A stretch of DNA of 35,163 bases from Bacillota bacterium (GCA_023443705.1 JAEZTD010000250.1:1-35163), one strand, 5' to 3'. Counted from the stretch's first letter, positions 5,441-34,323 are shown. Program-made: numbers and translations. Notes: generated by a model from the sequence alone, not told the origin.

Positions 5441-6837
5441 GGCTGTTCATGGACGAGGACTTTCTTTTGTCAAACCAGACGGCGCGCCGCCTGTACCACG
5501 AGTACGCCGCGCCCATGCCCATCATCGACTACCATTGCCACCTGTCTCCGGGGGAGATCGCGGAAAACATCCGCTTTCGGAACATCGGCCACCTGATGCT
5601 GGGCGGCGACCACTACAAGTGGCGCGCCATGAGCGCCTGCGGCTATGACAACGAATTCATCCGCACATCGGGTGACTACGAGCGGTTCATGGCCTACGCG
5701 AAGGTGATGCCGCAGCTCATCGGAAATCCGCTGTACCACTGGACGCACATGGAGCTTCGGCGCGTGTTTGGAATCCGCGAGACGCTTTCGGAGAAGACCG
5801 CGCCGGGCATCTGGGCGGTGGCCAATGAGATGCTCGTTGGAGACGATTTCCGCGCGCGGCGGCTGATTGAGCGGTTTGGCGTAAAAATGCTCGCAACCAC
5901 CGACGATCCGGTGGATTCGCTTCGGCACCACCAATCGATTGCGTCGGATGCGCCGTTTTGCGTCCAGGTGCTGCCCGCCTTCCGACCGGACAAGGCGCTG
6001 AACGCGGACAGGCCCGGCTTCAAGGCATATATTGAAAGCCTGTCAGAGGCGTCCGACATATCCATCGCGTCAGCGGCGGACGTCGTTCGCGCGCTGGAAA
6101 AGCGCGTCGACTACTTTCATGCCGAGCGCTGCCGCCTGTCGGACCACGCGCTGGACACCGTGCCGTTTGCGCAGGTCGATCCCGCAAAAGCGGAGCACGC
6201 GTTTGCCGCCGGCATGGGCGGCGGGATGGTTGCGGCGGAGGATCTTGAGCACTACCGCACCATGCTCCTCGTGGCGCTGGGCGGTATGTACCACGCCCGG
6301 GGCTGGGCGCAGCAGTACCACATGGGCGCGCTCCGGGATGCGAATGGGCGCATGTTTTCGCGCTTCGGCCCGGACACCGGCTTTGACGCCATCTCAAACC
6401 CGCCGGACGCCGGAAAGTTGGCGGCGCTGCTCGACGCGCAGGAGCGAAACGGCGCGCTGCCCAGAACCATCCTCTACACGCTGAACCCGTCGGCCAACTA
6501 CGCGCTGGCGGCTGTGGCGGGCTGCTTCCAGGGCGGAGAGCCCGGCAAAATCCAGTTCGGCAGCGCCTGGTGGTTCTGCGACCAGAAGGACGGGATGCTG
6601 GAGCAGATGAAGGCGCTGGCGGGGCTCGGGGTGCTGGGACGCTTCGTCGGCATGCTGACGGACTCCCGCTCCTTCGTCAGCTATCCGCGGCACGAGTACT
6701 TCCGCCGCATCCTGTGCGATCTGATCGGCACTTGGGTGGAGAACGGAGAATACCCGGAGGACGAGGGCGCGCTGCGGGAGATCGTCCGCGGCATCGCCTA
6801 TGAAAACGCGCGGCGCTACTTCGGGGTGGAAGAATGA
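5437..6837 (+). CDS. uxaC: glucuronate isomerase
   Basis: FLLSNQTARRLYHEYAAPMPIIDYHCHLSP is a typical UxaC N-terminus. The length is 466 aa and both ends are overlap-coupled to neighbouring genes. Confidence 0.9.
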   Translation: MRLFMDEDFLLSNQTARRLYHEYAAPMPIIDYHCHLSPGEIAENIRFRNIGHLMLGGDHYKWRAMSACGYDNEFIRTSGDYERFMAYAKVMPQLIGNPLYHWTHMELRRVFGIRETLSEKTAPGIWAVANEMLVGDDFRARRLIERFGVKMLATTDDPVDSLRHHQSIASDAPFCVQVLPAFRPDKALNADRPGFKAYIESLSEASDISIASAADVVRALEKRVDYFHAERCRLSDHALDTVPFAQVDPAKAEHAFAAGMGGGMVAAEDLEHYRTMLLVALGGMYHARGWAQQYHMGALRDANGRMFSRFGPDTGFDAISNPPDAGKLAALLDAQERNGALPRTILYTLNPSANYALAAVAGCFQGGEPGKIQFGSAWWFCDQKDGMLEQMKALAGLGVLGRFVGMLTDSRSFVSYPRHEYFRRILCDLIGTWVENGEYPEDEGALREIVRGIAYENARRYFGVEE

Positions 6838-8306
6838 ACAGGGCGGAGGCGCGGGCAAAGCGCATTCACCCGTCGGACGACGTGGCGGTGGCCCTCGCGC
6901 CCATTTCTAAGGGAGAGCAGGCACTGGGCGTCACGGCGCTTGATGACATACCCTTCGGGCACAAGATGGCCCTTCGACCCATTCTCCGGGGCGAGGACGT
7001 GACCAAATACGGCATGCCCATCGGTCGCGCCACGGAGGACATCCCACTGGGCGCGTGGGTACACACCCACAACCTTGCGACAAAGCTCGACACCGTGCGG
7101 GAATACCGCTACGAGCCCTCCCGGATTCCGGCCATCACCCCCTTCGAGGGAAGCTTCATGGGCTACCTTCGCGCGGACGGCTCCGTCGGCATCCGGAACG
7201 AGCTTTGGATTCTGCCCACGGTGGGCTGTGTGAACGGCGCGGCCGAGGCGATCGCGTTCAGGGCGCGGCGGGAGGTCGGCGTCCCAGTCTACGCGTTTTG
7301 CCATCCCTACGGCTGCAGCCAGCTGGGCGAGGACCATGAGAATACGCAGAAGATCCTGGCGCGCCTGGCCCGCCACCCCAACGCGGGCGGCGTACTGGTC
7401 TTGGGCCTCGGGTGCGAGAACAACCACATCGCCGCCTTTCGAGCGGTGCTCGGCGCGGTGGACGAGCGCCGCGTGCGCTTTCTGTGTGCCCAGGATGCCG
7501 AGGATGAAATTGAGGAAGGCCTGCGGCTGGTCCGCGAAATCGCTTTGACAGTGCGGGGCGACCAGCGGACGGCGCAGGGCGTTTCCAAGATCGTATTGGG
7601 CCTCAAGTGCGGCGGCTCCGACGGACTGTCCGGCATTACCGCCAACCCGCTCCTCGGCACCGTATCGGACGGCGTGTGCGCGGCGGGCGGCTCCGCGCTC
7701 CTGACCGAAGTGCCGGAGATGTTTGGCGCGGAGACGCTTCTCATGAACCGCTGTGAAAATGAGGAGACATTCCGAAGCGCGGCGGACATGGTGAACGGCT
7801 TCAAGCGATACTTTGCGTCCCACGGCCAGCCGGTGTACGAAAACCCTTCGCCGGGCAACCGGGCGGGGGGAATCACGACGCTGGAGGAGAAGAGCCTGGG
7901 CTGCACCCAGAAGGGCGGAACCGGCCCGGTTTCAGACGTCCTGGGTTATGGAGAGACCCGCAGAAAAAGCGGCCTGACCCTCGTGAACGCGCCCGGCAAC
8001 GACATCTGCGCCGTGACGGCGCTCGCGGCGGCGGGCGCGCAGCTGGTTTTGTTCACTACAGGCCGGGGAACTCCGCTTGGCGCACCGGTACCGACGGTGA
8101 AAATTTCCTCGAACGCCGTTCTCACGGCGAAGAAGAAAAACTGGATCGACTTCGACGCCAGCCCGCTTATGGACGGCGCGCCGCTTGCGGATGAGGCGCG
8201 GCGGCTGTTCAGCCTCATCCTGGACGCGGCCTCCGGCACAGAAACGCGGAATGAGCGAAACGGGGAGAGGCAGATCGCGATCTTCAAAAACGGCGTGACG
8301 CTCTAA
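6834..8306 (+). CDS. uxaA: altronate dehydratase (UxaA family)
   Basis: A SAF-like N-terminus (IHPSDDVAVAL..I.KGE) is followed by a UxaA-like body. The start overlaps the uxaC stop (ATGA). Confidence 0.9.
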   Translation: MNRAEARAKRIHPSDDVAVALAPISKGEQALGVTALDDIPFGHKMALRPILRGEDVTKYGMPIGRATEDIPLGAWVHTHNLATKLDTVREYRYEPSRIPAITPFEGSFMGYLRADGSVGIRNELWILPTVGCVNGAAEAIAFRARREVGVPVYAFCHPYGCSQLGEDHENTQKILARLARHPNAGGVLVLGLGCENNHIAAFRAVLGAVDERRVRFLCAQDAEDEIEEGLRLVREIALTVRGDQRTAQGVSKIVLGLKCGGSDGLSGITANPLLGTVSDGVCAAGGSALLTEVPEMFGAETLLMNRCENEETFRSAADMVNGFKRYFASHGQPVYENPSPGNRAGGITTLEEKSLGCTQKGGTGPVSDVLGYGETRRKSGLTLVNAPGNDICAVTALAAAGAQLVLFTTGRGTPLGAPVPTVKISSNAVLTAKKKNWIDFDASPLMDGAPLADEARRLFSLILDAASGTETRNERNGERQIAIFKNGVTL

Positions 8307-19792: not shown

Positions 19793-20152
19793 TTATTCTG
19801 TAATCTCCCAGCCCTGTTTGAAAAGGCGATACGTCTCGAAAGCTTTACATTCCTCTTGGCCATCGATGATGAAGGAATCGTCGGGTAAACCAATGATGAG
19901 AGATAACTTTGAGGCCTCAACAACATCCGCCAGGTGTTCGTAGCTTGCGGCCTGAATATGCGGTTCGATGTTGAAATTTACCAATCCGATCCCGGCATAG
20001 ATGATTTGTGCGGTCTCGTCATCGTGCGGATCCTTTGCCAAAACGACGTGCTTAGCCATGTTGTTGGAACCGGCGCTCATTCCGATGGTGATCACATCCC
20101 TCGCTTGGAGGACGGGGATCAGGCCATAGTCTCTGATGTAGGCAATCTGCGG
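19793..20152 (-). pseudogene. 5'-truncated fragment of a peptidase S51 (dipeptidase E)-like gene
   Basis: The frame is open only from 20152 and has no credible start. It contains an S51-like nucleophile segment (VITIGMSAGSNNM) and a C-terminal half. The upstream part is replaced by unrelated AT-richer DNA. Confidence 0.5.
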
Positions 20153-20427
20153 TTAAAGCACGATTTTCAGCATGAAACAGCGCTTTGCATATCGAACGGT
20201 GCATTTAAGGGCGCAATGCAGGCGGCTGGTTTTAGTCCAAAGGACGAACGAGAAATAAACGCTGTGTATAAGATACGGCAGCCCAAGCGTCAAAAGGCGC
20301 CAAGGGGATTGCGGGCCAAAGAACATGGCTTCCATGTTGAGTATGATTCCACTGGAGGTGCAAGCGTTACAAGGAGCGAGAACGGGGCGATTCGTCCTCC
20401 CTGACAGATTCTCCGGGGGCCTGGTAT

Positions 20428-20527
20428 AAGCGGCTCGATGCGGCGTATAAACGCTCTCAAACGAAAATACAAGGGAAGCAATGAGTGGGCGTCATTTCGA
20501 TGGCATCCACTTTTATGTTAATGGGCA
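20428..20527. repeat. conserved block R1, copy a (copy b at 25030-25130)
   Basis: AAGCGGCTCGATGCGGCGTATAAACGCTCTCAAACGAAAATACAAGG...GTGGGCGTCATTTCGATGGCATCCAC aligns with 25030-25130 with few mismatches. Confidence 0.8.
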
Positions 20528-20763
20528 TTTTAGTGAGGCAAGCACAGAACGTGCGGGATAACGAAAAAGTGAAGGCGCTTATAATGGTAGGCTGCTTACT
20601 GGTGTTTACCATAGTCAAATTGCTGTTCTTGCGGAATGTTTCGTTGGGCGCCATTGCTTCGGCAGTATATTGGGGCGCAATGCTTGGGGTGGCGTCTCTG
20701 CTTAGCAAAAGATGGGACAGGCACAAGGCGAAAAAGCGTGGATCGAGTTATGTAGAGGAATAG
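20485..20763 (+). CDS. small three-TM membrane protein with a highly charged C-terminal tail (holin-like architecture, function unknown)
   Basis: The 92-aa ORF has a GTG start inside R1. It shows three hydrophobic segments and then SKRWDRHKAKKRGSSYVEE. No homology was recognised. Confidence 0.5.
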   Translation: MGVISMASTFMLMGILVRQAQNVRDNEKVKALIMVGCLLVFTIVKLLFLRNVSLGAIASAVYWGAMLGVASLLSKRWDRHKAKKRGSSYVEE

Positions 20764-20784
20764 GCGAAAAATAGAAGTGGGGGG

Positions 20785-20886
20785 GAGGGGTATTTCCTTC
20801 TTCCTTGTTCCGATCCACACCCTGAGAGAGGGTAGCATGAAGGCATATCGCTCTATATGCGAATGGTTCCTATTCATGTGCAAAAC
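20785..20886. repeat. conserved block R2, copy a (copy b at 26435-26528)
   Basis: The shared sequence is TTCCTTGTTCCG.TCC.CAC..GAGAG.GG.AGCATG...CATATCG...ATG.TTCCTATT.A..GCACAAA. Confidence 0.7.
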
Positions 20887-20974
20887 AGCTTCCCATACTG
20901 GTTCTCATATAACATGCCTAGAGGGTTTGATTTGAGAGTATAGTCGAATCAAGTGGCACAGGAGTTTAGCATAT

Positions 20975-21448
20975 ATGAGTGAAGAGTTGGAGTTTGTAGA
21001 TGTTTCCTTTTCTCGGGGATTGGAGGTCTATTCAGTAGCGCGAAAACGATATGGATACGTTGTGAGAATTATGAAAAACATTACAACTGGAGAAAAGATA
21101 ATTACTGTACGATTTTATGATAACCGAGAAGTTGTTTTATTTGTATTTACAATTTGATCGGGAAGTAACATAATTCATGCTGATCTTTATAAAAATGTAG
21201 TTTTAAAATACGTTCAAGCATTTAATGATATCGAGTCAGAATCTAAAGTATCAATGTATTGTTCACTAAATTTATGCGAGAGAGTTTCTTGCTTCAGGTT
21301 TATGTATAGAATTATAAAAGGCAAATATAGTAACGCCCATTCGCTCAGAGGGAGAGAGAATATTGTTACGAAACACACAAGTATTTACGATACTTCGGAT
21401 GGCGGATTTATAAAAAATGCAGGTTGTATAGAAATGAGCGATATATAA
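20975..21448 (+). pseudogene. 157-codon AT-rich reading frame interrupted by one in-frame TGA (21155-21157)
   Basis: Track ORFs 20975..21157 and 21254..21448 are in the same frame, with no other stop between them. AGGAG lies 10 nt before the ATG at 20975. Confidence 0.4.
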
Positions 21449-21613
21449 ATTATCTATATATTTTTCTGTTTTACGCATATGTTGCGCAATTAATTGTTGG
21501 TATTGAGATGAAAGTGTGATTTTTATTTTTACCTAACCGCCCCCTTCCTCAAACATCAACACAGGTGTGACTTGGAGATTGTAGCCATTCTCCCAAATGG
21601 GTAAAAACGGAGA

Positions 21614-21752
21614 TAAGTGGTCATTTTCAAGCTGGTTGTGGTATTTATTATGGTCAAGCGCAGTTGAGGTAAACCGGCCTGATTGCGCAATTTGTGCAAG
21701 GAGAACAAAGGAAACCCCAATATATAATGAAAACCCACCGCTGTTCGGTGGG
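21614..21752. repeat. copy of the tRNA-proximal end block of the integrative element (paralog of 28359-28497)
   Basis: AAGTGGTCATTTT.AAGCTGGTTGTGGTATTTATT.TGGTCAAGCGC...TGTGCAAGGAGAACAAAG...AAAACCCACCG..GTT..GGTGGG is shared with 28359-28497. Confidence 0.8.
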
Positions 21753-21960
21753 TCAAGGCATCGAAAAACCCTATGGTTTTTTCGATGCGAAGGAAGGAAA
21801 CCTGCGTGCGCCTGAAATCCTCACGGATTTCCGAGCGGCGCACTGACCAAAGGTATAAATAGCGCCACCAATATGCGTACTGGTGGCGCTATCCCGTTCC
21901 CGGCGTACACGCCGCCGGGAACGATTGAAACCCCTACCGAGACTTTGTTGATGGTCTGAA
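21753..21960. repeat. copy 2 of the 208-nt structured interspersed element
   Basis: It aligns with 954-1160. It is flanked by an exact 18-nt direct repeat, CCACCGCTGTTCGGTGGG, at 21735-21752 and 21961-21978. Confidence 0.85.
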
Positions 21961-21983
21961 CCACCGCTGTTCGGTGGGTTTGT

Positions 21984-22033
21984 TGGTGGAGCATAGGGGA
22001 TTTGAACCTATGACCTCTACGATGCGAAAGTGT
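21984..22033 (-). other. displaced 3' fragment of tRNA-Ala (att repeat at the distal end of the integrated element)
   Basis: It matches 28503-28552 (acceptor 3' strand through the anticodon loop), with exact blocks of 19 and 18 nt. Three mismatches break the T-stem. Similarity ends at about 22033. Confidence 0.8.
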
Positions 22034-22125
22034 ACTCATAGTGTTTTGGTGTGTTTCGCCGTCCCGAAATACCCCTGAAATACAAGGGTTTGCCGATTGC
22101 CAAGTATGCCTAGTGTTGCTTCGTG

Positions 22126-22155
22126 TTGTGGTAATTGTGGTCAGAATTGTGGTCA
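22126..22155 (+). promoter_or_regulatory. three direct TTGTGGT(C)A repeats, candidate integrase arm-type binding sites
   Basis: TTGTGGTA is at 22126-22133, and TTGTGGTCA is at 22135-22143 and 22147-22155. The same motif pair recurs at 28381-28401 and 21636-21656, each about 100 nt from a tRNA-derived core. Confidence 0.5.
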
Positions 22156-22569
22156 AAATCCCGGGCTGATCGGGGTGTGTTTAGCCCTCCATGTCAAGCT
22201 GCCAATCATCAAAGAACATCTGTTTTCATTGAAAAAAATCGCATCAGCAGTAAACACCGGCATTAGTCGGAAACGTTTCCGTAAGCTATATTTGATCGAT
22301 CAACGATTGTCAGCGCATGTAAGGGGGGCTGCCTATAAACGGGCCGCTCTGATACATGCTATCTTCCTGCTTGCATCCCATCGAGCCGCACCACGCACAG
22401 ACCCTGAGGGGAGGGGACAATTACCACCCTATGCGCGCGGCTTGCGTCCGTCCCCAGAAGGTGAGATGCATGCAGAGACATGAGAAAGCCCCCCCTGGGG
22501 GAGGGCGAAGTGGGTCCTACTTTCCGCAAATGCAAGAGGCTGTCGCGATTTTTTTTGGCACCCCACCGG

Positions 22570-23715
22570 TCAAAAATGCTGTAGGGCTTCAAGGGCTTTC
22601 TTCTTGGTTTCCATGCTGCTATGAACGTAGGTCTGAAGCGTGAAGGCGACTTTGCTATGACCGATCAATTCACCAACCGTGCGAACGTCAACCCCGGCGC
22701 GGATCAGGTTTGTAGCGAATGAATGCCGGAGCGCATGGAGGCCCCGATGCTTCAATCCTGCCCGTTTCAAAGCCGCTGTGAGCGTCCTTCTGAGGTTGGC
22801 CGGGTCTTTGATCGCCCCGGATTCGGCAGAGAACACATACCCGTTATCCTGCCATAGTTCACCGGCTGCAAGCTTCCGCTCTGCATATAGCTTGCGTTGC
22901 GTCTGGAGAATTGCGGAGGTTGCCGGAACAATCGGGATTTCGCGCTTCCCTGCTTTCGACTTGGGCGCAGCGATGGACAGGGCGGTTTTGCGCTCGTCTT
23001 CCTTGGCATCGAAAGCCTTGACACGAACCGCTCCCTGCCGTACTGTGAAATGGTCTGCGTCTACATCTGCCCAGCGCAGCGCACAGAGTTCCGAAACGCG
23101 GAGGCCGGTATTGAGGATGAACCGCAGACAACGCCCATTGTCCGTATCGGGCAGCGATTCCATGAGCTTCTTTTGCTCGTCAGGCTCAAAGAAATCAACT
23201 TCGCGCTGTTCCATCTTGGGTTGCATCACGCCATCAGCCGGGTTCTTTGCAATGAGGCCGTTAATGACCGCCTGCTTGAGCGCGGCTTTGAGGACTTCAA
23301 TCATCTTCCGAACCGTTGCGGGCTGCTTGTCCTTGGACTGCTCATTGATAAAGCGCTGGATCTGCTCCACCCGCAGCTTTTGAAGCTGAACCTTTCCCAT
23401 GGAAGGGATGAGGTAGGTCTTGATATTTGAATCGTACACCGTTGCGGTCGATTCCCTGTGCGAGGGCCTGAAATACACTTCAAACCACGAATTCAGCCAG
23501 CCCGAAACCGTCATCTTGTCCGGCGCAATATACAGCCCTTCGTCGAGCTTCTTTAAAACGTCGCGCAGCTTTATCCGCACTTCGTCCTGGGTGGCAGCAT
23601 ATACGCTCCGCCTTATCAGGGTTCCGTTCGGCTTCCGTCCGCAGCTGTAAATGCCTTCCCAGCGCCCATCGGGCCGCTGACGAATGCAACCCTCACTGTT
23701 CGCTCTCTTGGACAT
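22570..23715 (-). CDS. int: tyrosine-type site-specific integrase
   Basis: The catalytic region reads HALRHSFATNLIRAGVDVRTVGELIGHSKVAFTLQTYVH, and the N-terminus is SAM-like. ATG at 23713-23715 lies 6 nt after AAAGGAGG. Confidence 0.9.
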   Translation of the reverse strand: MSKRANSEGCIRQRPDGRWEGIYSCGRKPNGTLIRRSVYAATQDEVRIKLRDVLKKLDEGLYIAPDKMTVSGWLNSWFEVYFRPSHRESTATVYDSNIKTYLIPSMGKVQLQKLRVEQIQRFINEQSKDKQPATVRKMIEVLKAALKQAVINGLIAKNPADGVMQPKMEQREVDFFEPDEQKKLMESLPDTDNGRCLRFILNTGLRVSELCALRWADVDADHFTVRQGAVRVKAFDAKEDERKTALSIAAPKSKAGKREIPIVPATSAILQTQRKLYAERKLAAGELWQDNGYVFSAESGAIKDPANLRRTLTAALKRAGLKHRGLHALRHSFATNLIRAGVDVRTVGELIGHSKVAFTLQTYVHSSMETKKKALEALQHF

Positions 23716-23884
23716 TGTGGGCCTCCTTTTCAACGCTGTTCGATAATGCTGCCTTTCGCATCGAAATAATCTCATCTCGTACCAACTTCAAACCAGCAGG
23801 AACATGAAGAAGCAACGCCTGTGCTACGCTGTCGCCATCTAGGACTGAGTTCTTAGTGCTATAGCCCTCTGTAACCCCTCCCAT
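23693..23884 (-). CDS. possible small HTH/excisionase-like protein overlapping the int start (weak)
   Basis: The 63-aa ORF overlaps the int start by 23 nt. The segment SVAQALLLHVPAGLKLVRDEI is loosely HTH-like. No convincing RBS is present. Confidence 0.25.
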   Translation of the reverse strand: MGGVTEGYSTKNSVLDGDSVAQALLLHVPAGLKLVRDEIISMRKAALSNSVEKEAHNVQESEQ

Positions 23885-23919
23885 TCGAGATCGAGATTCG
23901 GGATCGGCTGCAATACGGC

Positions 23920-24108
23920 TTGCCAGTTGAGAAGTGGGAATGGTACAAGACCTCCGATCTTAAGCCATACATCCCGGGCTATGCGACCGGGGAGCAGATA
24001 GGTCGCGTGCTTCGAAAGCTGGCGAAAGAGGACTCGCGTATTGTAATCAAGACACCGGGAAACATTCGTCACTACCTGCTTCCGTTGGTGCGGTCTTCCT
24101 TCATGTAG
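23920..24108 (+). CDS. possible small winged-helix-like protein, or the C-terminal remnant of a larger (primase-like) gene
   Basis: It has a TTG start and no RBS, and the frame is open only from 23875. The pattern ..GEQIGRVLRKLAKEDSRIVIKTPGNIRHYLLP resembles C-terminal tails of P4-type primases. The ORF ends exactly at the iteron cluster. Confidence 0.3.
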   Translation: MPVEKWEWYKTSDLKPYIPGYATGEQIGRVLRKLAKEDSRIVIKTPGNIRHYLLPLVRSSFM

Positions 24109-24115
24109 GGGGGGA

Positions 24116-24359
24116 GTTAATGGGGTTAAGGCGGAGTTAATGCGGAAATCGCGGGTGCCTTAACCCCGAAAACCCTTGTATTCATTGGGTTTCCAGACCG
24201 TAGTTAAGGTTGTTAATGCACATTCTAATGAGCTGTAAGAAGTTGGTGTATAAAAAATAAACATAGGGAAATGTGCCTTAACTGCATTAACAAGACCAAT
24301 AAAAAGCCTTGATTTATAAGGGTTTGTGGCGTGATTCGGGGTTAATGCGGTGCCTTAAC
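24116..24359. repeat. cluster of ten GTTAAKGC motifs in both orientations around an AT-rich core (iteron/operator array)
   Basis: Forward sites start at 24116, 24125, 24136, 24203, 24212 and 24341. Reverse sites (GCMTTAAC) start at 24157, 24275, 24284 and 24352. An AT-rich stretch (GTATAAAAAATAAACATAG) lies at 24248-24266. Confidence 0.8.
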
Positions 24360-24429
24360 ATCCTTCACTTCCATGTCGCCCGCGCCCGTGCGACCGACAC
24401 GACCAAATCAAAAGTGAACAAGGAGCAAC

Positions 24430-24708
24430 ATGCGACGGAAAATATCAGTAGGCGTCCGGGATCTCGCTGCCGTTCAGCGCATCTTGGAGGGTGCGGAGAT
24501 CGAGCAGTTCCTTACTGGCCCGGCAGTTGACTTTGGTTGGGTGTGTGGCCGGACGCGGATAGGGCTAATTCTTCGACGGCCTAACGGTTCAAGACTGCTA
24601 TTGAGCTTGTTTGCTGGGGGAGTGATCGAAAGCCCTTTGCTCGGAAACATCCACAGGATTCCACCCATAGGCAAAATACAGGAGGACAAACCCAATGAGG
24701 CAGATTGA
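24430..24708 (+). CDS. hypothetical protein (92 aa)
   Basis: AAGGAG lies just upstream of the ATG at 24430. The ORF overlaps the next ORF by 14 nt. No family was recognised. Confidence 0.55.
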   Translation: MRRKISVGVRDLAAVQRILEGAEIEQFLTGPAVDFGWVCGRTRIGLILRRPNGSRLLLSLFAGGVIESPLLGNIHRIPPIGKIQEDKPNEAD

Positions 24709-25012
24709 TACGAAGTTGAACATTCTGGATTACTTTGATTCGCTTACATGGCGGGAGGTGCCTGACCTCAAGGCGCTTCGCGAGATGTTGCGCGGATGCA
24801 CCATCGAAGAAACTGAACAAGCTTGTACGGAGTTCGATGACGAGCAGGGCATCCCACTCTATGCAGCGTTGTTTTTGAAGGTTGCCGCTCCTGACGGTCG
24901 GCGTATTGCGGTTCAACTCCTTGCAGAAGACCCCATTGGGCTTTCGGGTTGGCTCGTTGCTTCGGTCGCTGATATAGGCAATCAGAGCGGCGAAGGAACG
25001 CCCCCTTCCTGA
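24695..25012 (+). CDS. hypothetical acidic protein (105 aa)
   Basis: AGGAGG lies 9 nt upstream of the ATG at 24695. A diverged, truncated counterpart appears to exist at about 20230-20404, just before R1a. Confidence 0.55.
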   Translation: MRQIDTKLNILDYFDSLTWREVPDLKALREMLRGCTIEETEQACTEFDDEQGIPLYAALFLKVAAPDGRRIAVQLLAEDPIGLSGWLVASVADIGNQSGEGTPPS

Positions 25013-25029
25013 TACACGCCCCAGCCCGC

Positions 25030-25130
25030 AAAACGGCTCTGTGCGGCTCACAAACGCTCTCAAACGAAAATACAAGGACAGTCTCTTGTGGGCGTCATTT
25101 CGATGGCGTCCACGCTCATGTTATTGGGCA
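25030..25130. repeat. conserved block R1, copy b
   Basis: It aligns with 20428-20527. It retains the GTG start and first ~13 codons of the 92-aa membrane-protein frame (VGVISMASTLMLLG), then diverges and stops at 25175-25177. Confidence 0.8.
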
Positions 25131-25336
25131 ATAAGAATTACATACAGAATAACCGGCAAAGTGAGCCAAGCCCTTGACAACGGCACGGAAAAGCAGTACA
25201 TTTGAACTGATAACTATATGCACAGATTTGGTTAACTTGATGAAAATCCAAATGGCAGACCGCCTCTAAGTAGACTTAGAAGCTGAATGATGTGTTTTAC
25301 TCCGTGCAAGGTGCGTTGAACATTGGAGGAATAACA

Positions 25337-26287
25337 ATGTGCTATTTGCGAAAGGTCATTACTGGTTTCGCTTTCCTTGCCGCGCTTATTTTCCCTTTTG
25401 TTTCCTTTGGCGATAGTATTCTCATTCCTGTAGATTTGGGATGCACGCCAAATCAAATGCTTGAATATATATATAGTCATTCGGACTGTGACGCTGTGAA
25501 GTTGAGTGAGTATGATTTTCATGTTGATGTGAGAGGCGAATCTGGACACTCGATAATGGCTTTAAAGAACGGCTTTTTTCAGGCATATATGATTAATGAG
25601 AAGACGAAAAACATCCATACGTTGAATATTGGTTTCGATAAAGAAGCGGACGTTGATAAGATAACGGCTTCTGCCAACATTTTCATGGATACGGTAAGGA
25701 TTGTTATGGAGAGGATCGGGAGATTGTCCGATTATTCATCTCTCGTTGACAGGATCGGAACTGAGAATATAAACTCATATTTCACCGATATTCAGACAAG
25801 CGTTTCGTACAACGGTGTCACTTATATTTTTGGTTCGGACATAAAAAGTGTGTCGCTGTTTGTGAGCGTGGATGATATAGATTCAGCGAAAATGAGTGTG
25901 GACAATGAAGTTGATTGGCAAGACGCAAGGACAGTATTAGCGGCAATGGAGAAAACCGGTGAAATTTCAGCGGGAGGAAAGAAAATCTATAATAAGTACA
26001 CCGACATAGTAGATAAAACAATAAGCGGAGGATCCGATATCTATTTCTATGATAAATTCACAGGCGAACACGCATATAACCGAATTACCGTTTATTACAG
26101 TACTGCAAGAGCTATTGAGGTTGAAAATAGCATCAATAGCCTATCGTACTATTTCCCTGAAACGATGCCAAGGTGTTATAGATTTAAAAATTGTGTACTC
26201 GTGTTGTCTTCAGAAATTGGCTCATATATGGAGCTGAAATATGCCGTTGCCTTTTATAAGGCTTTCCAAACACAGCAAGATAACTAA
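25337..26287 (+). CDS. secreted hypothetical protein (316 aa), AT-rich cargo gene
   Basis: GGAGG lies 7 nt before the ATG at 25337. The signal peptide is MCYLRKVITGFAFLAALIFPFVSFG. This is the most AT-rich long ORF in the window. No family was recognised. Confidence 0.7.
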   Translation: MCYLRKVITGFAFLAALIFPFVSFGDSILIPVDLGCTPNQMLEYIYSHSDCDAVKLSEYDFHVDVRGESGHSIMALKNGFFQAYMINEKTKNIHTLNIGFDKEADVDKITASANIFMDTVRIVMERIGRLSDYSSLVDRIGTENINSYFTDIQTSVSYNGVTYIFGSDIKSVSLFVSVDDIDSAKMSVDNEVDWQDARTVLAAMEKTGEISAGGKKIYNKYTDIVDKTISGGSDIYFYDKFTGEHAYNRITVYYSTARAIEVENSINSLSYYFPETMPRCYRFKNCVLVLSSEIGSYMELKYAVAFYKAFQTQQDN

Positions 26288-26434
26288 TCCAATTTACCCC
26301 CAGGTTCTGCGGCTCTCATCGGATAAGACTATTAATGTCGATCTTTCAAACACCTCCAGCCGTTTGCCGGGCGTTTGGACGGACGCAGACTGATTGTCCA
26401 CAGTTTAGGTCGAATTAATGCGGATGGGAAAGGC

Positions 26435-26528
26435 GGGGTTTCCTCCTTCCTTGTTCCGTTCCCCACAGAGAGGGGGGAGCATGCCTCATATCGGCACTTA
26501 ATGAGAATGATTCCTATTTACGCACAAA
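26435..26528. repeat. conserved block R2, copy b
   Basis: It aligns with 20785-20886. It includes a small hairpin with one compensatory change: CCCT/AGGG in copy a versus CCCC/GGGG in copy b. Confidence 0.7.
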
Positions 26529-26562
26529 GGCCCACCATGCAGGCGGCTATTCTTATTCCATG

Positions 26563-26585
26563 CATCTAGTTTTAGAAACTAGATG
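26563..26585. terminator. perfect 10-bp inverted repeat between convergent cargo genes (bidirectional terminator or operator)
   Basis: The sequence is CATCTAGTTT-tag-AAACTAGATG. Confidence 0.45.
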
Positions 26586-26701
26586 GAGCTGGGGCTGCTG
26601 TTGGCTCTATTTGCGAACAAGAAGCACTTGAGTATGTACAATTTATTGAGCTGTTTCCCCGAACAGCCGCGGCGTGTGACCTTCCTGAAATTGCTGGAGG
26701 C

Positions 26702-27112
26702 TTATTCCCCGGAGCCCAAGCGCTCGTCCTTTGCTTTCAGAGCTGTCCCTATTTGAATTATATCATTGTCAACACAAAGCAAGCCGTTTTCTAGGTTGTA
26801 GTAAACGGTGCGAGGGTTGTTGGGGCCCAAGAAAATAAAGTCGTTTGGGCCTTCTGATTGTGTCATAGGCTTGAGTGTGACGCGAAGTTCGACGCCAATA
26901 CATCTGAAATCTGATTGGAGTACTCTGTTATACCTTTCTAAGCATTCTGTCGCAATTCTTTTGCAGTCCTCCTCATTCGGTAATTGATCGGCATTTATAA
27001 GCGTATCATCGTAAAAATATGCCATTGTTCCCCACGAATCGCGGTTGTTATCAAAAATGTCAATCCTTACATTCCATAGATCTCTTTCCTTGCTACTTAG
27101 TGGCTTTATCAT
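26702..27112 (-). CDS. hypothetical protein (136 aa) co-transcribed with the XRE regulator
   Basis: GGAGGAG lies 6 nt before the ATG at 27110-27112. The start overlaps the last 20 nt of the XRE gene. No family or catalytic motif was recognised. Confidence 0.65.
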   Translation of the reverse strand: MIKPLSSKERDLWNVRIDIFDNNRDSWGTMAYFYDDTLINADQLPNEEDCKRIATECLERYNRVLQSDFRCIGVELRVTLKPMTQSEGPNDFIFLGPNNPRTVYYNLENGLLCVDNDIIQIGTALKAKDERLGSGE

Positions 27113-27329
27113 GATCTTCTCCTCCATCTTCCACGTACTCCATGATATCGCCTGGTTGACAGCCAAGTGCGCGACACAGGTTGTTGATCGTACGTGTATC
27201 CACATATCCTTCATTTTTCATAAGCTTCGCATAAGTGGCCTGACCCACTAGACCGGCTTTCCGGATTTTAATGTTAGTCCATCCTTGTGCGCGTAGCAAT
27301 TCATGTAGCTTATTAAATACAATAGCCAT
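27093..27329 (-). CDS. XRE-family (Cro/CI-type) helix-turn-helix regulator
   Basis: In this 78-aa protein, ..IRKAGLVGQATYAKLMKNEGYVDTRTINNLCRALGCQPGDIMEY is a typical short XRE HTH. GGAGGATAAAA precedes the ATG. Confidence 0.85.
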   Translation of the reverse strand: MAIVFNKLHELLRAQGWTNIKIRKAGLVGQATYAKLMKNEGYVDTRTINNLCRALGCQPGDIMEYVEDGGEDHDKATK

Positions 27330-27361
27330 TTTTATCCTCCGTCATCGTTCTTTCCCTCAAC

Positions 27362-27390
27362 AGTATAACAGAAAGCGCACACCATGTCTA
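27362..27390 (-). promoter_or_regulatory. candidate promoter of the XRE/136-aa operon
   Basis: On the minus strand: TAGACA (27385-27390), 17-nt spacer, TATACT (27362-27367). Confidence 0.45.
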
Positions 27391-27432
27391 GTGCAATAGC
27401 CCCACATGCAATACACTAAAGATTGTGCAATT
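27391..27432. promoter_or_regulatory. three direct RTGCAATW repeats between the divergent promoters (candidate XRE operators)
   Basis: GTGCAATA is at 27391-27398, ATGCAATA at 27406-27413 and GTGCAATT at 27425-27432. Confidence 0.45.
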
Positions 27433-27440
27433 ATCCGGTA

Positions 27441-27469
27441 TTGAGATTACACTAGATATGGTGTATAAT
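27441..27469 (+). promoter_or_regulatory. strong sigma-A-type promoter with extended -10, driving the 89-aa/101-aa genes
   Basis: TTGAGA (27441-27446), 17-nt spacer ending in TGT, then TATAAT (27464-27469). Confidence 0.55.
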
Positions 27470-27597
27470 GTTGACGGAGGTTGAGGGAAGCACACAAGAA
27501 GCCCAACGGGAACCGGATGCGAAAGGCAGTGCCAATAAGCCCGAGTAAGCAGAAGCCGCCCCGCCCCAACCGATCAACACGAAGGAGGTTTTCAACA

Positions 27598-27867
27598 GTG
27601 TCACAGCATGAGATCGTCGCCACTGTCACCGAGCTTCAGGAGTTGCGCCGGATGCAGGAAGAACTGGAGGCCGCTATCGAGGCCGCACAGGACAAGATCA
27701 AGGCCCACATGGGCGAGGTCGAGGAACTGACCGCCGGGGGGTTCAAAGTCACATGGAAGGCCGTCACCAGCAACCGCCTGGACGCCACCGCATTGAAAAA
27801 GGCCCTGCCGGAAGTGGCGGAGCGGTTCACCAAGACCACCACCGCGCGGCGCTTCATGGTAGCGTAA
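27598..27867 (+). CDS. hypothetical coiled-coil protein (89 aa)
   Basis: GAAGGAGG lies 9 nt before the GTG at 27598. The sequence TELQELRRMQEELEAAIEAAQDKIKAHMG...ALKKALPEVAERFTK looks like small proteins I recall from clostridial mobile elements; this is unverified. Confidence 0.6.
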   Translation: MSQHEIVATVTELQELRRMQEELEAAIEAAQDKIKAHMGEVEELTAGGFKVTWKAVTSNRLDATALKKALPEVAERFTKTTTARRFMVA

Positions 27868-27987
27868 AAGCCGCCCACCTTCCACAGCGACGGCTTTCGC
27901 AGGAACTTACCAACCGAATCGGCTGGAGGCTCACACAGAGTATAGCGCGGGGCCTCCAGCCGGTCAAGTACGAAAGGAGAGGTTTTC

Positions 27988-28293
27988 ATGAAACTGAATC
28001 CCGTCAACACGTCGAACCTCGTGTATGTTCTTCGAGATGCCCTTCTGTACCACAGCGTGTATTGCGCTCGCCCGGAAGACGTGGAAACGCCGGATAAAGC
28101 AATCTGCAGAACCGAAAAAGCCTGCAGCGAGATCATGAAGCGGGTCGAGTGCGCCGATTTGCAGGAGGAAATTGAAAACGCATACGCGGAGTGTCTTGCA
28201 GCTTATGAATGCTCCGGCTTTCAGCGTGGTATCCAGGCGGGGGCGCAGCTCATGCTTGAACTGCTAGGTAAGGGACCGTACAAGGAAGGCTAA
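27988..28293 (+). CDS. hypothetical protein (101 aa)
   Basis: AAGGAGAGG lies before the ATG at 27988. A terminator follows the stop. Confidence 0.6.
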   Translation: MKLNPVNTSNLVYVLRDALLYHSVYCARPEDVETPDKAICRTEKACSEIMKRVECADLQEEIENAYAECLAAYECSGFQRGIQAGAQLMLELLGKGPYKEG

Positions 28294-28315
28294 GCCACCG
28301 GAACCGAGCCGACAG

Positions 28316-28340
28316 CGGGGCGTAGATCGCCCCGTTTTTC
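28316..28340 (+). terminator. Rho-independent terminator of the 89/101-aa operon
   Basis: CGGGGCG-tagat-CGCCCCG is followed by TTTTTC. Confidence 0.75.
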
Positions 28341-28358
28341 TATGCTCAAAACCGGGGA

Positions 28359-28497
28359 AAAGTGGTCATTTTGAAGCTGGTTGTGGTATTTATTGTGGTC
28401 AAGCGCGGCTGGGGAGAATCGGTCAGATAGTGTGTTTTGTGCAAGGAGAACAAAGAAAGCTCGAATACAAAGCGAAAACCCACCGTGTTTTGGTGGG
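28359..28497. repeat. tRNA-proximal end block of E1 (paralog of 21614-21752), including arm-type repeats at 28362-28401
   Basis: It aligns with 21614-21752. It contains GTGGTCA (28362-28368), TTGTGGTA (28381-28388) and TTGTGGTCA (28393-28401). Confidence 0.8.
28471..28497 (-). terminator. Rho-independent terminator of tRNA-Ala (unoccupied homolog of the site carrying repeat copy 2)
   Basis: The minus-strand RNA reads CCCACC-aaaacac-GGUGGG followed by UUUUCGCUUU. Confidence 0.75.
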
Positions 28498-28502
28498 TTT
28501 GA

Positions 28503-28578
28503 TGGTGGAGCATAGGGGATTCGAACCCCTGACCTCTACGATGCGAACGTAGCGCGCTACCAGCTGTGCTAATGCCCC
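28503..28578 (-). tRNA. tRNA-Ala (anticodon CGC), CCA encoded
   Basis: The manual cloverleaf is GGGGCAT/ATGCTCC acceptor with G3-U70, anticodon stem CTACG/CGTAG, loop TTCGCAT, and T-arm AGGGG-TTCGAAT-CCCCT. The D-stem has one mismatch. Length is 76 nt. Confidence 0.9.
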
Positions 28579-32546: not shown

Positions 32547-32818
32547 TCATACTACCGCGTTCTAATCATATACCATTTGTGTGCGCCCGGAGCATTTCGC
32601 TTCGGGCGTTTAGGCTATAAACAGATTCTTTGCACAAACCAAATCGTCCCCGGTGGCGTGGAAATTGGACGCGCGATGTGCGTCCCTACGAAGGACGCCG
32701 AGCAGCGGCGCCACCCAATCCCTGTCGTTCCTTCAAATCGTTCCCGGCGGCGTGTACGGCGGTAACGGTTCTCGTAGCCAGTGCGCACACCGGCGGAGGA
32801 AACGATTCCTTTAAGTAA

Positions 32819-32851
32819 GGAAGACTGAACCCCAAAGTGGTTCAGTCTTCC
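32819..32851. terminator. 13-bp perfect hairpin downstream of the isomerase/kinase operon
   Basis: GGAAGACTGAACC-ccaaagt-GGTTCAGTCTTCC lies about 70 nt after the stop at 32920. No clear U-tract is present. Confidence 0.45.
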
Positions 32852-32919
32852 GAAGTATCCCGTTCCCACGTGTCAAAATGTCCGCAGGAGATTTGGACGC
32901 AAGCGCGTCAGCGCAATCG

Positions 32920-34323
32920 TTAGCTGTGCCTGTAGATCTCCCACCCCATGTAGTTGGAGAGCGCCTCTTCCAGCACATCCGCGCACTCAGCCTGGGTCAG
33001 CGCCACATGGTGCTCGTAGCCGTTTTTGGTCAGGTGGCGCATCAGGCCGCTCAGGTTCTCCACCTCGCACACCGCCACGCCGCCGAAGGTGGGGAGGGGG
33101 TCGTCGGTAAAGCGTCCCTCGCCGAGATAGCCCTTGACGACGCCGCGCCGGTCGTCGGTGGAGAGCTTGAGGTAGGTCATCTTTGCCGGGCGCACGCGGC
33201 CCTTCAGCGCGCCGAAGGACACATCCGCGCCCAACGTGGTGGCGAGGATGTCCAGGTTCGCGATCTCCGGCTTTTCCTCAAACGCGCAGGCGGGGTAGTT
33301 CGAGCAGTGGACGTTGATGCACTTGTCCGGCTCGTCTTTATAGTTGTTGTTCCAGTCCTGATAGATCGGCGGAACGCCGGAGGCGTTCAGGAGCGCCAGC
33401 ATCGAAACGGCGCCCATCACATCGGTCTCGCAGGCGCTGGGACGGCCCTTTTCGCCCATCATGCTCATGCCCAGGCACATCGCGCAGCCGTAGTTGGCCT
33501 CCACGCTGTCCCAGCACTGGATCGCGCTGGCGGTGCAGCGGTGGGCGGCCATCCAGTCCTCAACGGCGAGGATCAGCTTTGCCTGGCGCTCCAGCTTTTC
33601 CTGGGTGCCGCAGGGCGCGACGTTGCCGTAGGCGCGAATCTCCGCGACCTTCTGGTCGATGCGGGCGCGGTCCGTCATTTCGTTCGCGTCGGCGAGAATT
33701 TCGGAAAAGTCCTCGGTCTCGACGGTAATCCCGCTCAATTGCAAGAGCTTTTCGGAATAACGCACGGTGCGGAAGGGCGTGACGCGGGCGCCGATCTGGC
33801 CGATGCGGGCGGTTTTCAATGCCTTGACCACCCGGCAGACGCCCGCGAAGAATGCAACATCTTTTTTGAATGCTTCGGACAGAATCGCGCAGGTGTGGCG
33901 GCTGGTCAGCGTGTACTTGATGCCGTACTGGTAGAGGTTGTTGCACAAGGACAGCTTGCCGCAGAACGCGTCGCGGCGGTTTTCCAGCTGCAGCTTGTCA
34001 AAGTCGTCGTCGCAGGCCTGGATGAGGATTGGACAGTCGAGCTTCGACATCCGCATCGCGTCGGCGATGCCGGCTTCCTCGCCGAAGTTGGGAAGGCAGA
34101 TGATCACGCCGTCGATCTCGTCCGCGTGGGTGCGGAAGAGCTTCGCGCACTTCTCGGCCTCCTCATAGCTCATGGTCTCGCCCATGTTGGTGTCCTCGGT
34201 GGACAACGTGACGACTTTGTGGCCCCAGGATTCGAGGGAGCTTAAAAGCTGCTCCCGGGCGGTCAGCACCAAGTGATCCGGGAAGAAGGAGCGGTTGGAG
34301 ATCAGAACGCCAAAGGTAGCCAT
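32920..34323 (-). CDS. L-fucose/L-arabinose isomerase-family protein
   Basis: MATFGVLISNRSFFPDHLV...GVIICLPNFGEE...DAFCGKLSLCNNL is typical of the FucI-like family. AGGAGG lies 7 nt before the ATG at 34321-34323. Confidence 0.85.
   Translation of the reverse strand: MATFGVLISNRSFFPDHLVLTAREQLLSSLESWGHKVVTLSTEDTNMGETMSYEEAEKCAKLFRTHADEIDGVIICLPNFGEEAGIADAMRMSKLDCPILIQACDDDFDKLQLENRRDAFCGKLSLCNNLYQYGIKYTLTSRHTCAILSEAFKKDVAFFAGVCRVVKALKTARIGQIGARVTPFRTVRYSEKLLQLSGITVETEDFSEILADANEMTDRARIDQKVAEIRAYGNVAPCGTQEKLERQAKLILAVEDWMAAHRCTASAIQCWDSVEANYGCAMCLGMSMMGEKGRPSACETDVMGAVSMLALLNASGVPPIYQDWNNNYKDEPDKCINVHCSNYPACAFEEKPEIANLDILATTLGADVSFGALKGRVRPAKMTYLKLSTDDRRGVVKGYLGEGRFTDDPLPTFGGVAVCEVENLSGLMRHLTKNGYEHHVALTQAECADVLEEALSNYMGWEIYRHS

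Follow-up and report, generated by a model that had tools for sequence, protein, structure and literature searches.

The question raised by this locus is why the same short sequence blocks enclose unrelated genes in two neighbouring mobile elements. The locus lies in a 35,163-nucleotide (nt) stretch of DNA from a Bacillota bacterium (GCA_023443705.1 JAEZTD010000250.1:1-35163), referred to below as the window, and consists of two genomic islands in tandem at a tRNA-Ala gene: a decayed remnant and a more complete second island, each with one copy of two repeat blocks, R1 and R2. An earlier reading, made from the sequence alone (the sequence-only reading), had proposed that R1 and R2 flank a slot in which cargo genes are exchanged. 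The answer we favour, at a probability of roughly 0.7, is that moron-like cargo cassettes are exchanged between short linkers in tandem islands whose layout resembles that of phage-inducible chromosomal islands (PICIs).

Repeat blocks shared by two tandem islands

Sensitive blastn comparison of the remnant with the second island returned four co-linear repeat pairs: R1, R2, a block close to the attachment (att) site termed D1, and a tRNA fragment. These features and the integration markers are as follows.

20428-20527 and 25031-25130, plus strand: R1 pair (R1a and R1b); blastn identity 81% over 100 nt, E = 6e-21.
20784-20884 and 26432-26528, plus strand: R2 pair (R2a and R2b); blastn identity 75.5% over 102 alignment columns, E = 3e-13.
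21603-21753 and 28348-28498, plus strand: att-proximal D1 pair (D1a in the remnant, D1b in the second island), 80% identical; also present in contig L029.
21961-22031, minus strand: displaced tRNA-Ala 3' fragment with a terminator hairpin, at the boundary between remnant and second island; 87% identical to 28480-28550 and also present in contig L001.
28503-28578, minus strand: tRNA-Ala(cgc), the integration target, with its 3' part supplied by the island; ARAGORN, Rfam 62.5 bits.
22570-23718, minus strand: tyrosine integrase of the second island; Pfam Phage_integrase 8.5e-27, phrog_1 1.3e-69, 96% amino acid (aa) identity to L001.

The host DNA of the window has a GC content of ~62%, and a stretch of lower GC runs from ~19.7 to 28.5 kb. 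As the tRNA-Ala 3' part is repeated, and the integrase gene sits just inside the repeat at 21961-22031, the interval 22032-28502 is an island integrated into the tRNA 3' end. To its left, ~20153-21960 is what remains, in decayed form, of the right-hand half of an older, related island displaced by the second integration; the left end of this older island is deleted at ~20153. Each R1/R2 copy adjoins its own tRNA-derived boundary, indicating two separate integrations.

Both the coordinates and the description of R1 and R2 as bracketing repeats with differing contents, as given by the sequence-only reading, were confirmed by blastn and by the open reading frames (ORFs) between them. Within R1, the 20-mer AAACGCTCTCAAACGAAAAT is identical in both copies (20449-20468 and 25052-25071) and was absent from 100 shuffled sequences, even with up to 3 mismatches allowed. 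R1b is ~99% identical to its counterpart in L029, and its similarity to relatives extends to 25202. Neither R1 nor R2 matched Rfam, at gathering thresholds or at E ≤ 1.

Relatives and their cargo

The relatives comprise about 20 public contigs bearing R1/R2, obtained from protein searches followed by exact look-up of the encoding contigs. An integrase search of 185,579 species genomes (GTDB) returned one close locus, L001, a Bacillota metagenome-assembled genome with an integrase 96% and host flanks 92% identical to those of the window; the other 16 integrase loci, at ≤33% identity, were left out. Contigs L019-L022 were found via a 135/136-aa gene, L024-L026 via the 316-aa cargo protein of the window, L029 and L030 via a 64-aa protein, and L032-L041 via an XRE-type regulator. 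In viral contigs, the R1 core, R1 hairpin and R2 core patterns had no match, and the integrase and the 136-aa protein had no close relative. The island family is rare. L028, from an AT-rich organism, has a gene distantly related to the 135-aa gene but no R1, and was discarded as uninformative. A motif census found the R1 hairpin in every contig that spans its position (L001, L019-L022, L027, L029 and L034 among them) and R2 in every contig with the XRE operon, more than 12 in number.

The cargo between the blocks is of two types. Type C, a putatively exported orphan protein of 315/316 aa, is carried by the window, L024-L026, L034-L038, L019 and L022; between the window and L019, identity is 69% at the protein level and 76% at the DNA level. 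Type B, carried by L001, L020, L021 and L029/L030, consists of a 186-aa protein with a signal-like N-terminus followed by the 64-aa protein, which has two transmembrane (TM) segments, a charged tail and its own ATG, and is encoded ~0.8 kb 3' of R1. The 316-aa and 186-aa proteins were compared as possible relatives and the match was rejected (E = 0.76).

25337-26287, plus strand: type-C cargo gene of the window, 316 aa; GGAGG 7 nt upstream; single N-terminal hydrophobic, signal-like segment.

Recombination at the linkers

The decisive evidence comes from islands that are almost identical on one side of a linker and carry different genes on the other. L019 and L020 are 99.8% identical over 4,311 nt, spanning the integrase, the regulator, the AlpA-like and VapE-like genes and two small genes; mismatches between them start inside R1, the next 100 nt are ~70% identical, and from there the sequences are unrelated (315 aa versus 186 aa + 64 aa). 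The window and L029 provide the second pair. Upstream, from the module termed U2 to R1, they are 91% identical overall and near-identical through 25129, and from R2 onwards they are 95.6% identical over 1,556 nt, yet the window holds type C and L029 type B. Recombination has taken place at R1, and a replaceable insert between conserved blocks, as the sequence-only reading had proposed, is borne out by these two pairs. On the other side, L019 diverges from the window exactly at the left edge of R2.

The module upstream of R1 is also exchanged. Other islands carry U1, an 89-aa-family gene plus the 135/136-aa gene, which in the second island of the window is replaced by U2, two paralogues of the 89-aa family. 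The two forms occur in the window as follows.

24430-25012, plus strand: U2 module, two small genes of 92 aa and 105 aa, paralogous by blastp; 91% identical to L029.
20153-20404, plus strand: 3' part (84 codons) of the 135/136-aa gene of U1, in the remnant; blastp 72% to residues 53-135 of the 135-aa protein of L001 and 63% to the 136-aa protein of L019, with a weak phrog_9576 match.

All four combinations of upstream module and cargo exist: U1 with type B (L001, L020, L021), U1 with type C (L019, L022), U2 with type B (L029) and U2 with type C (the window), which requires exchange between upstream module and cargo. The crossovers differ from pair to pair, falling at the R1 hairpin, within 40 nt after it, or after the -10 box at 25202, and together span ~170 nt from hairpin to promoter. 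Such scatter agrees better with homologous recombination along a shared segment than with cutting at a single site. The sequence-only reading had taken the point where R1b diverges for the visible breakpoint of the swap; the edge seen at 25130 is that of the deletion in the remnant, and the true crossovers are spread over the ~170 nt.

Regarding the 135/136-aa family, the 136-aa gene of U1 (L020, 3765-4172) and its relatives show distant similarity (35-38% identity) to Streptococcus pyogenes prophage proteins, located ~12-13 kb into their records; a further match is to a 14-kb Lacticaseibacillus record labelled 'phage', perhaps a satellite in its own right.

Anatomy of the cassette

R1 is composed of a ~55-nt stretch with the invariant 20-mer, an 11-bp hairpin and, ~60 nt further on, promoter-like hexamers. 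In R1b the hairpin (25088-25113) has 11 bp and a UUCG loop; in R1a (20485-20510) it has one C-A mismatch and is followed by TTTTATGTT. Among seven aligned copies, standard pairs occupy 98.7% of cells and three pairs differ, by exchange of GC and GU only, a pattern that fits a structure formed on the plus strand, as RNA or as single-stranded DNA. From its position and conservation, the hairpin would mark the end of the upstream operon, and the hexamers downstream would provide the cassette with its own promoter. At the other end of the cassette lies R2, for which consensus folding of three sequences on both strands gave no convincing structure. The interval from R1b to R2b measures 1,301 nt and has a GC content of 40.5%, compared with ~52% for the island core and ~62% for the host.

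25174-25202, plus strand: predicted cassette promoter, TTGACA-17 nt-TACATT; kept in type-B and type-C relatives and lost in the remnant.
26432-26528, plus strand: R2b, spacer between the cassette and the convergent XRE operon; similarity of ~96% to L020 and L029 continues to 27980.
20784-20884, plus strand: R2a, spacer 3' of the cassette in the remnant, whose left edge carries a G-rich/CU-rich hairpin (20779-20801).

In metagenome contigs the R1 core pattern matched once, in L018 (4898-4918), by a 23-nt identity within an FtsK/SpoIIIE-like gene of an unrelated element, encoding the peptide ALKRKYKD that one frame of R1 also encodes. As a bare 23-nt match with no flanking similarity, it was judged to be due to chance.

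The remnant as a deletion derivative

A 92-aa ORF is the sole content between R1a and R2a, and the sequence-only reading had taken it for a three-TM protein forming cargo of its own. In a gapped alignment the remnant follows type B co-linearly, from R1 through 13 nt of the spacer to the two-TM gene and R2, but lacks ~730 nt that contain the promoter and the 186-aa gene. A search with the 92-aa ORF returned P0009 (64 aa), 75% identical over 70% of the query. The ORF is thus a fusion created by deletion from a type-B cassette and not a third cargo type; in type B itself the two-TM protein is a separate 64-aa ORF with its own ATG.

20485-20763, plus strand: 92-aa ORF, R1 hairpin frame fused to the two-TM gene; two-TM homology from ~20569 (gapped alignments to L029, L020 and L001).
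20885-21602: remnant-specific AT-rich segment, 34.5% GC, at the position of the XRE/136-aa operon of other islands.

Since the AT-rich segment at 20885-21602 replaces the XRE operon, a second variable region exists there.

Function of the cargo proteins

No meaningful match to the cargo proteins was obtained in PADLOC, Pfam, PHROGs, NCBIfam or the PDB. In PADLOC, the 316-aa, 186-aa, 92-aa and 136-aa proteins had no match at E ≤ 0.1, and sequence searches of the PDB gave nothing below E = 0.09. A search of 5.8 billion protein clusters gave a single relative for the 316-aa protein, that of L019, and a full HMMER scan of 1.8 billion representatives returned the L019 protein only, together with a marginal, repeat-wise match (E = 6e-5) of residues 144-203 to a cadherin/Ig-repeat surface protein. 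The latter is a weak hint of a β-rich extracellular segment. The AlphaFold2 prediction for the 316-aa protein, built with its sole homologue, reached a mean pLDDT of 41.9, too low to be used.

Both cargo types are AT-rich relative to the island, and each has a single N-terminal hydrophobic segment. The proteins most likely act at the cell envelope or outside the cell; phage exclusion, or action against other cells, would be guesses as to their role.

Comparison with known systems

The cassette has close parallels in temperate phages, where morons and the boundary sequences of mosaic lambdoid phages have reportedly been described (Juhala/Hendrix in 2000, Clark et al. in 2001). There, as here, a self-contained unit of lower GC, with promoter, gene and hairpins, is placed between backbone genes, and short conserved sequences at module borders are sites of reshuffling by homologous recombination. 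The features of the moron type in the window are the conserved TTGACA-17-TACATT, the hairpin upstream of it, the G-rich hairpin at the edge of R2 and a GC content of 40.5% against ~52%, the activity of these signals being predicted. The host of a moron is a phage, whereas the cassette described here resides in a small island with no structural genes, and its promoter and terminator activities are likewise predictions. Integrons differ more strongly: they have recombination sites at both cassette ends and a dedicated integrase, whereas the junctions here are scattered, R2 has no R1-like hairpin and the only integrase is the one directed at the tRNA site.

With respect to the island as a whole, the layout is that of a PICI (PMC6092414; also PMC10085698), in which an integrase at one end, with a specific att site, is followed by an Stl-like repressor and AlpA divergent from the replication genes, and then by a replicase and an iteron origin. 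The integrase (22570-23718) and the duplicated tRNA-Ala 3' end are present in the window. The divergent regulators are present in L024-L026 and deleted in the window, and the replicase is VapE-like in these sister strains, AAA_25 in L001 and L029, and a C-terminal stub in the window. In gene order, integrase and regulator point leftward, AlpA-like gene, replicase and origin rightward, and then come small genes, the cassette, the XRE operon and the att site. PICIs, including those of Staphylococcus aureus (SaPIs), also have accessory genes for secreted proteins in the att-distal half, as here. The packaging and interference genes of PICIs (terS, capsid morphogenesis, ppi) were not recognised in the islands studied here (Pfam, PHROGs, NCBIfam), in which no phage structural or lysis gene was found either among the ORFs (Pfam, PHROGs, gene calls). 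In size, the islands (~8.5 kb in the full form of the sister strains, 6.5 kb in the window) fall below the usual PICI range of ~12-15 kb. Because they have no recognised terS, capsid-remodelling or interference gene and reach only ~8.5 kb, we describe the islands as PICI-like in layout and do not file them as PICIs; at best they would be 'Type C' elements of SatelliteFinder, the authors of which regard such elements, with three core functions, as unsafe PICI calls (PMC10085698).

The hotspots of P2 and P4 elements likewise combine conserved flanks with a replaceable insert, exchanged between near-identical elements. They differ in having a large and recognisable anti-phage repertoire, comprising very many systems (PMC9122126; see also PMC13586616 for the hotspot comparison), and in belonging to Enterobacterales; the islands here have two types of exported orphans and belong to uncultured Bacillota.

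Weighing the explanations

According to the explanation we prefer, the R1-R2 interval would be a moron-like, self-contained expression cassette made up of an operon-end hairpin, a promoter close to the consensus and an AT-rich gene whose product would be exported. R1 and R2 would be short linkers common to otherwise different modules, and homologous recombination between related islands would cross over in these linkers and replace the whole cassette, tandem or co-resident copies such as those in the window giving the opportunity for exchange. The att-proximal half of the island is a chain of replaceable modules with short conserved linkers, R1 and R2 among them.

Several results count against this explanation. 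The right-hand linker is not universal, as no R2 is present in the 207 nt after the cargo of L001 or in the 134 nt after that of L019. Cargo diversity is low, with two types and one deletion derivative in ~20 contigs, and does not make a rich hotspot. In the seven R1 hairpins no pair has changed on both sides, and the shuffle control was uninformative; most copies have no clear U-tract, leaving a terminator role not established. Promoter scans gave 13 sites against 10.9 expected from shuffled sequence; as this is no excess, the promoter call is based on position and conservation. Genes for terS, capsid remodelling or interference were not recognised among the island ORFs (Pfam, PHROGs, NCBIfam).

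The alternatives fare less well. That R1 and R2 reflect one local duplication of no wider meaning would agree with two copies 4.6-5.6 kb apart in equal order and orientation, but is almost certainly wrong and already refuted by the relatives: both blocks recur in contigs from other samples and hosts and beside other neighbours, the two window copies are only 75-81% identical to each other while R1b is ~99% identical to L029, and each copy has its own tRNA-derived boundary. We also give little credence to the proposal that a membrane-protein gene is ancestral and was replaced, by a break after codon 13, by the DNA for the secreted protein. As the sequence-only reading observed, the 92-aa frame has its GTG and opening ~13 codons repeated in R1b, where the frame initiated at 25088 does exist and stops at 25175-25177; these codons, however, are the arms and loop of the conserved 11-bp hairpin, and their V-to-A and S-to-P changes turn GU pairs into GC pairs. 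The TM protein of type B moreover lies behind the 186-aa gene with an ATG of its own, and the remnant is type B minus ~730 nt, with 13 nt of the spacer between hairpin and promoter kept. Site-specific exchange, with the R1 hairpin as a cassette recombination site as in integrons, would explain why the left edge of the variable DNA carries an invariant 20-mer and a strongly conserved hairpin; it is very improbable given crossovers spread over ~170 nt, no matching hairpin at R2 and a tRNA-targeting integrase as the sole recombinase.

Two further proposals concern what the cargo does. Known exclusion proteins of Gram-positive prophages are exported or membrane proteins. The exported cargo is similar in this respect, and the slot, with its conserved flanks, AT-rich variable insert, own promoter and satellite-like island, could be a defence or exclusion hotspot like those of P2/P4, its proteins blocking superinfecting phages at the envelope. 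We consider this unlikely: the families of PADLOC (at E ≤ 0.1), Pfam, PHROGs and NCBIfam gave no match, two cargo types contrast with the very many of P2/P4, and the 316-aa protein is nearly without relatives. The expectation that the inserts would be defence or exclusion genes is left with its enrichment unproven. Alternatively, in type B the 186-aa protein could be a secreted effector and the 64-aa protein its small membrane immunity partner, the decayed island retaining the immunity gene only. The gene order and the two-TM partner with its charged tail would suit this, as would the remnant, in which the 186-aa gene is lost and the TM frame stays open. The idea is nevertheless quite improbable, as no similarity to any bacteriocin, toxin or immunity family was found, type C has no such partner, 64 codons can stay open by chance in a young remnant, and the 64-aa protein is also shaped like a class II holin. 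A bolder combination is a long shot: R1, instead of being a passive linker, would be active in cis and tie expression or exchange of the cassette to the island life cycle, with type B as effector plus immunity and decayed islands as orphan-immunity loci. If true, these tiny islands would provide uncultured gut or environmental Bacillota with a new surface weapon, swappable and directed at other bacteria or at phages.

Under the preferred explanation, cassette exchange by recombination in the linkers, the locus offers a clean, small example of accessory-gene reshuffling in satellite-like islands, with short linkers and crossovers visible at nucleotide level, and the tandem pair illustrates how a single cell acquires two copies. 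The locus also draws attention to a rare island family of uncultured Bacillota, whose exported cargo proteins, almost without relatives among billions of sequences, are candidates for new functions at the envelope. That conserved flanks can enclose a replaceable insert is well known, and the value is descriptive rather than conceptual, the process being ordinary mosaic evolution.

The backbone of the second island

The second island had been called intact by the sequence-only reading; compared with the sister strains L024, L025 and L026, which are 99.5-99.7% identical on both sides, the window lacks 2,052 nt at 23873/23874. The missing DNA holds the complete genes of a 57-aa ORF and a 66-aa AlpA-like HTH_17 protein, together with the greater part of two others, for a 208-aa HTH_3 regulator (integrase strand) and a 443-aa VapE-like replicase (1.2e-51 for the sister-strain protein); in L024-L026 the HTH_17/AlpA-like gene is on the strand opposite to HTH_3. 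With this loss, the supposedly intact element is a deletion variant without regulation and replication.

23693-24108: deletion scar, in which two C-terminal stubs abut, one from the HTH_3 regulator (23693-23873, minus strand) and one from the VapE-like replicase (23874-24108, plus strand).
24110-24372: iteron-like repeats immediately behind the replicase stub; GTTAATGCGG / GCCTTAAC units of either orientation flank an AT-rich centre.
26702-27329, minus strand: overlapping operon of a 78-aa XRE-type helix-turn-helix protein (27093-27329; Pfam HTH_26, 1e-11) and a 136-aa protein (26702-27112), ~44% GC.
27598-28293, plus strand: two small genes, of 89 aa (phrog_1956 / C-terminal part of phrog_434) and 101 aa (weak DUF6809).

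The iteron-like repeats are probably the replication origin of the island, judging by their arrangement and position. In the XRE operon, the XRE protein is identical on 13 contigs of different island lineages and the 136-aa protein has no family match; the operon could be a second accessory module or a pair similar to a toxin and antitoxin. The 101-aa gene is exchanged for 68-aa or 74-aa genes in relatives.

Variation at the attachment site

The island of L029 adjoins tRNA-Val(gac) instead of tRNA-Ala(cgc), with the same D1 block (L029 5158-5434 compared with window 28302-28578). Integration in this family is apparently not confined to a single tRNA gene. On the host side, a truncated peptidase S51-like ORF (19793-20130, minus strand, ~50% GC) lies between a host AraC-type gene and the remnant. 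L001, which has no remnant, has at the equivalent position (6835-7470) a 211-aa ORF that may resemble a chloramphenicol acetyltransferase. The host side of the att site is variable in itself between the window and L001.

Finally, a structured repeat of ~207 nt, similar to a miniature inverted-repeat transposable element (MITE), occurs in the window at 21754-21960 and at 955-1160, the two copies being 91% identical. It has imperfect terminal inverted repeats and no Rfam match, and a 231-nt stretch across it folds, as RNA, at -103.5 kcal/mol (z = -6.2). The additional 208 nt that separate D1a from the tRNA fragment are explained by this repeat. Both full copies lie inside a terminator-like hairpin that is duplicated on either side. 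A third, partial copy is found in L024/L025 (17257-17417), where the sequence departs from that of the window (~32550-32921); its presence thus varies from strain to strain.

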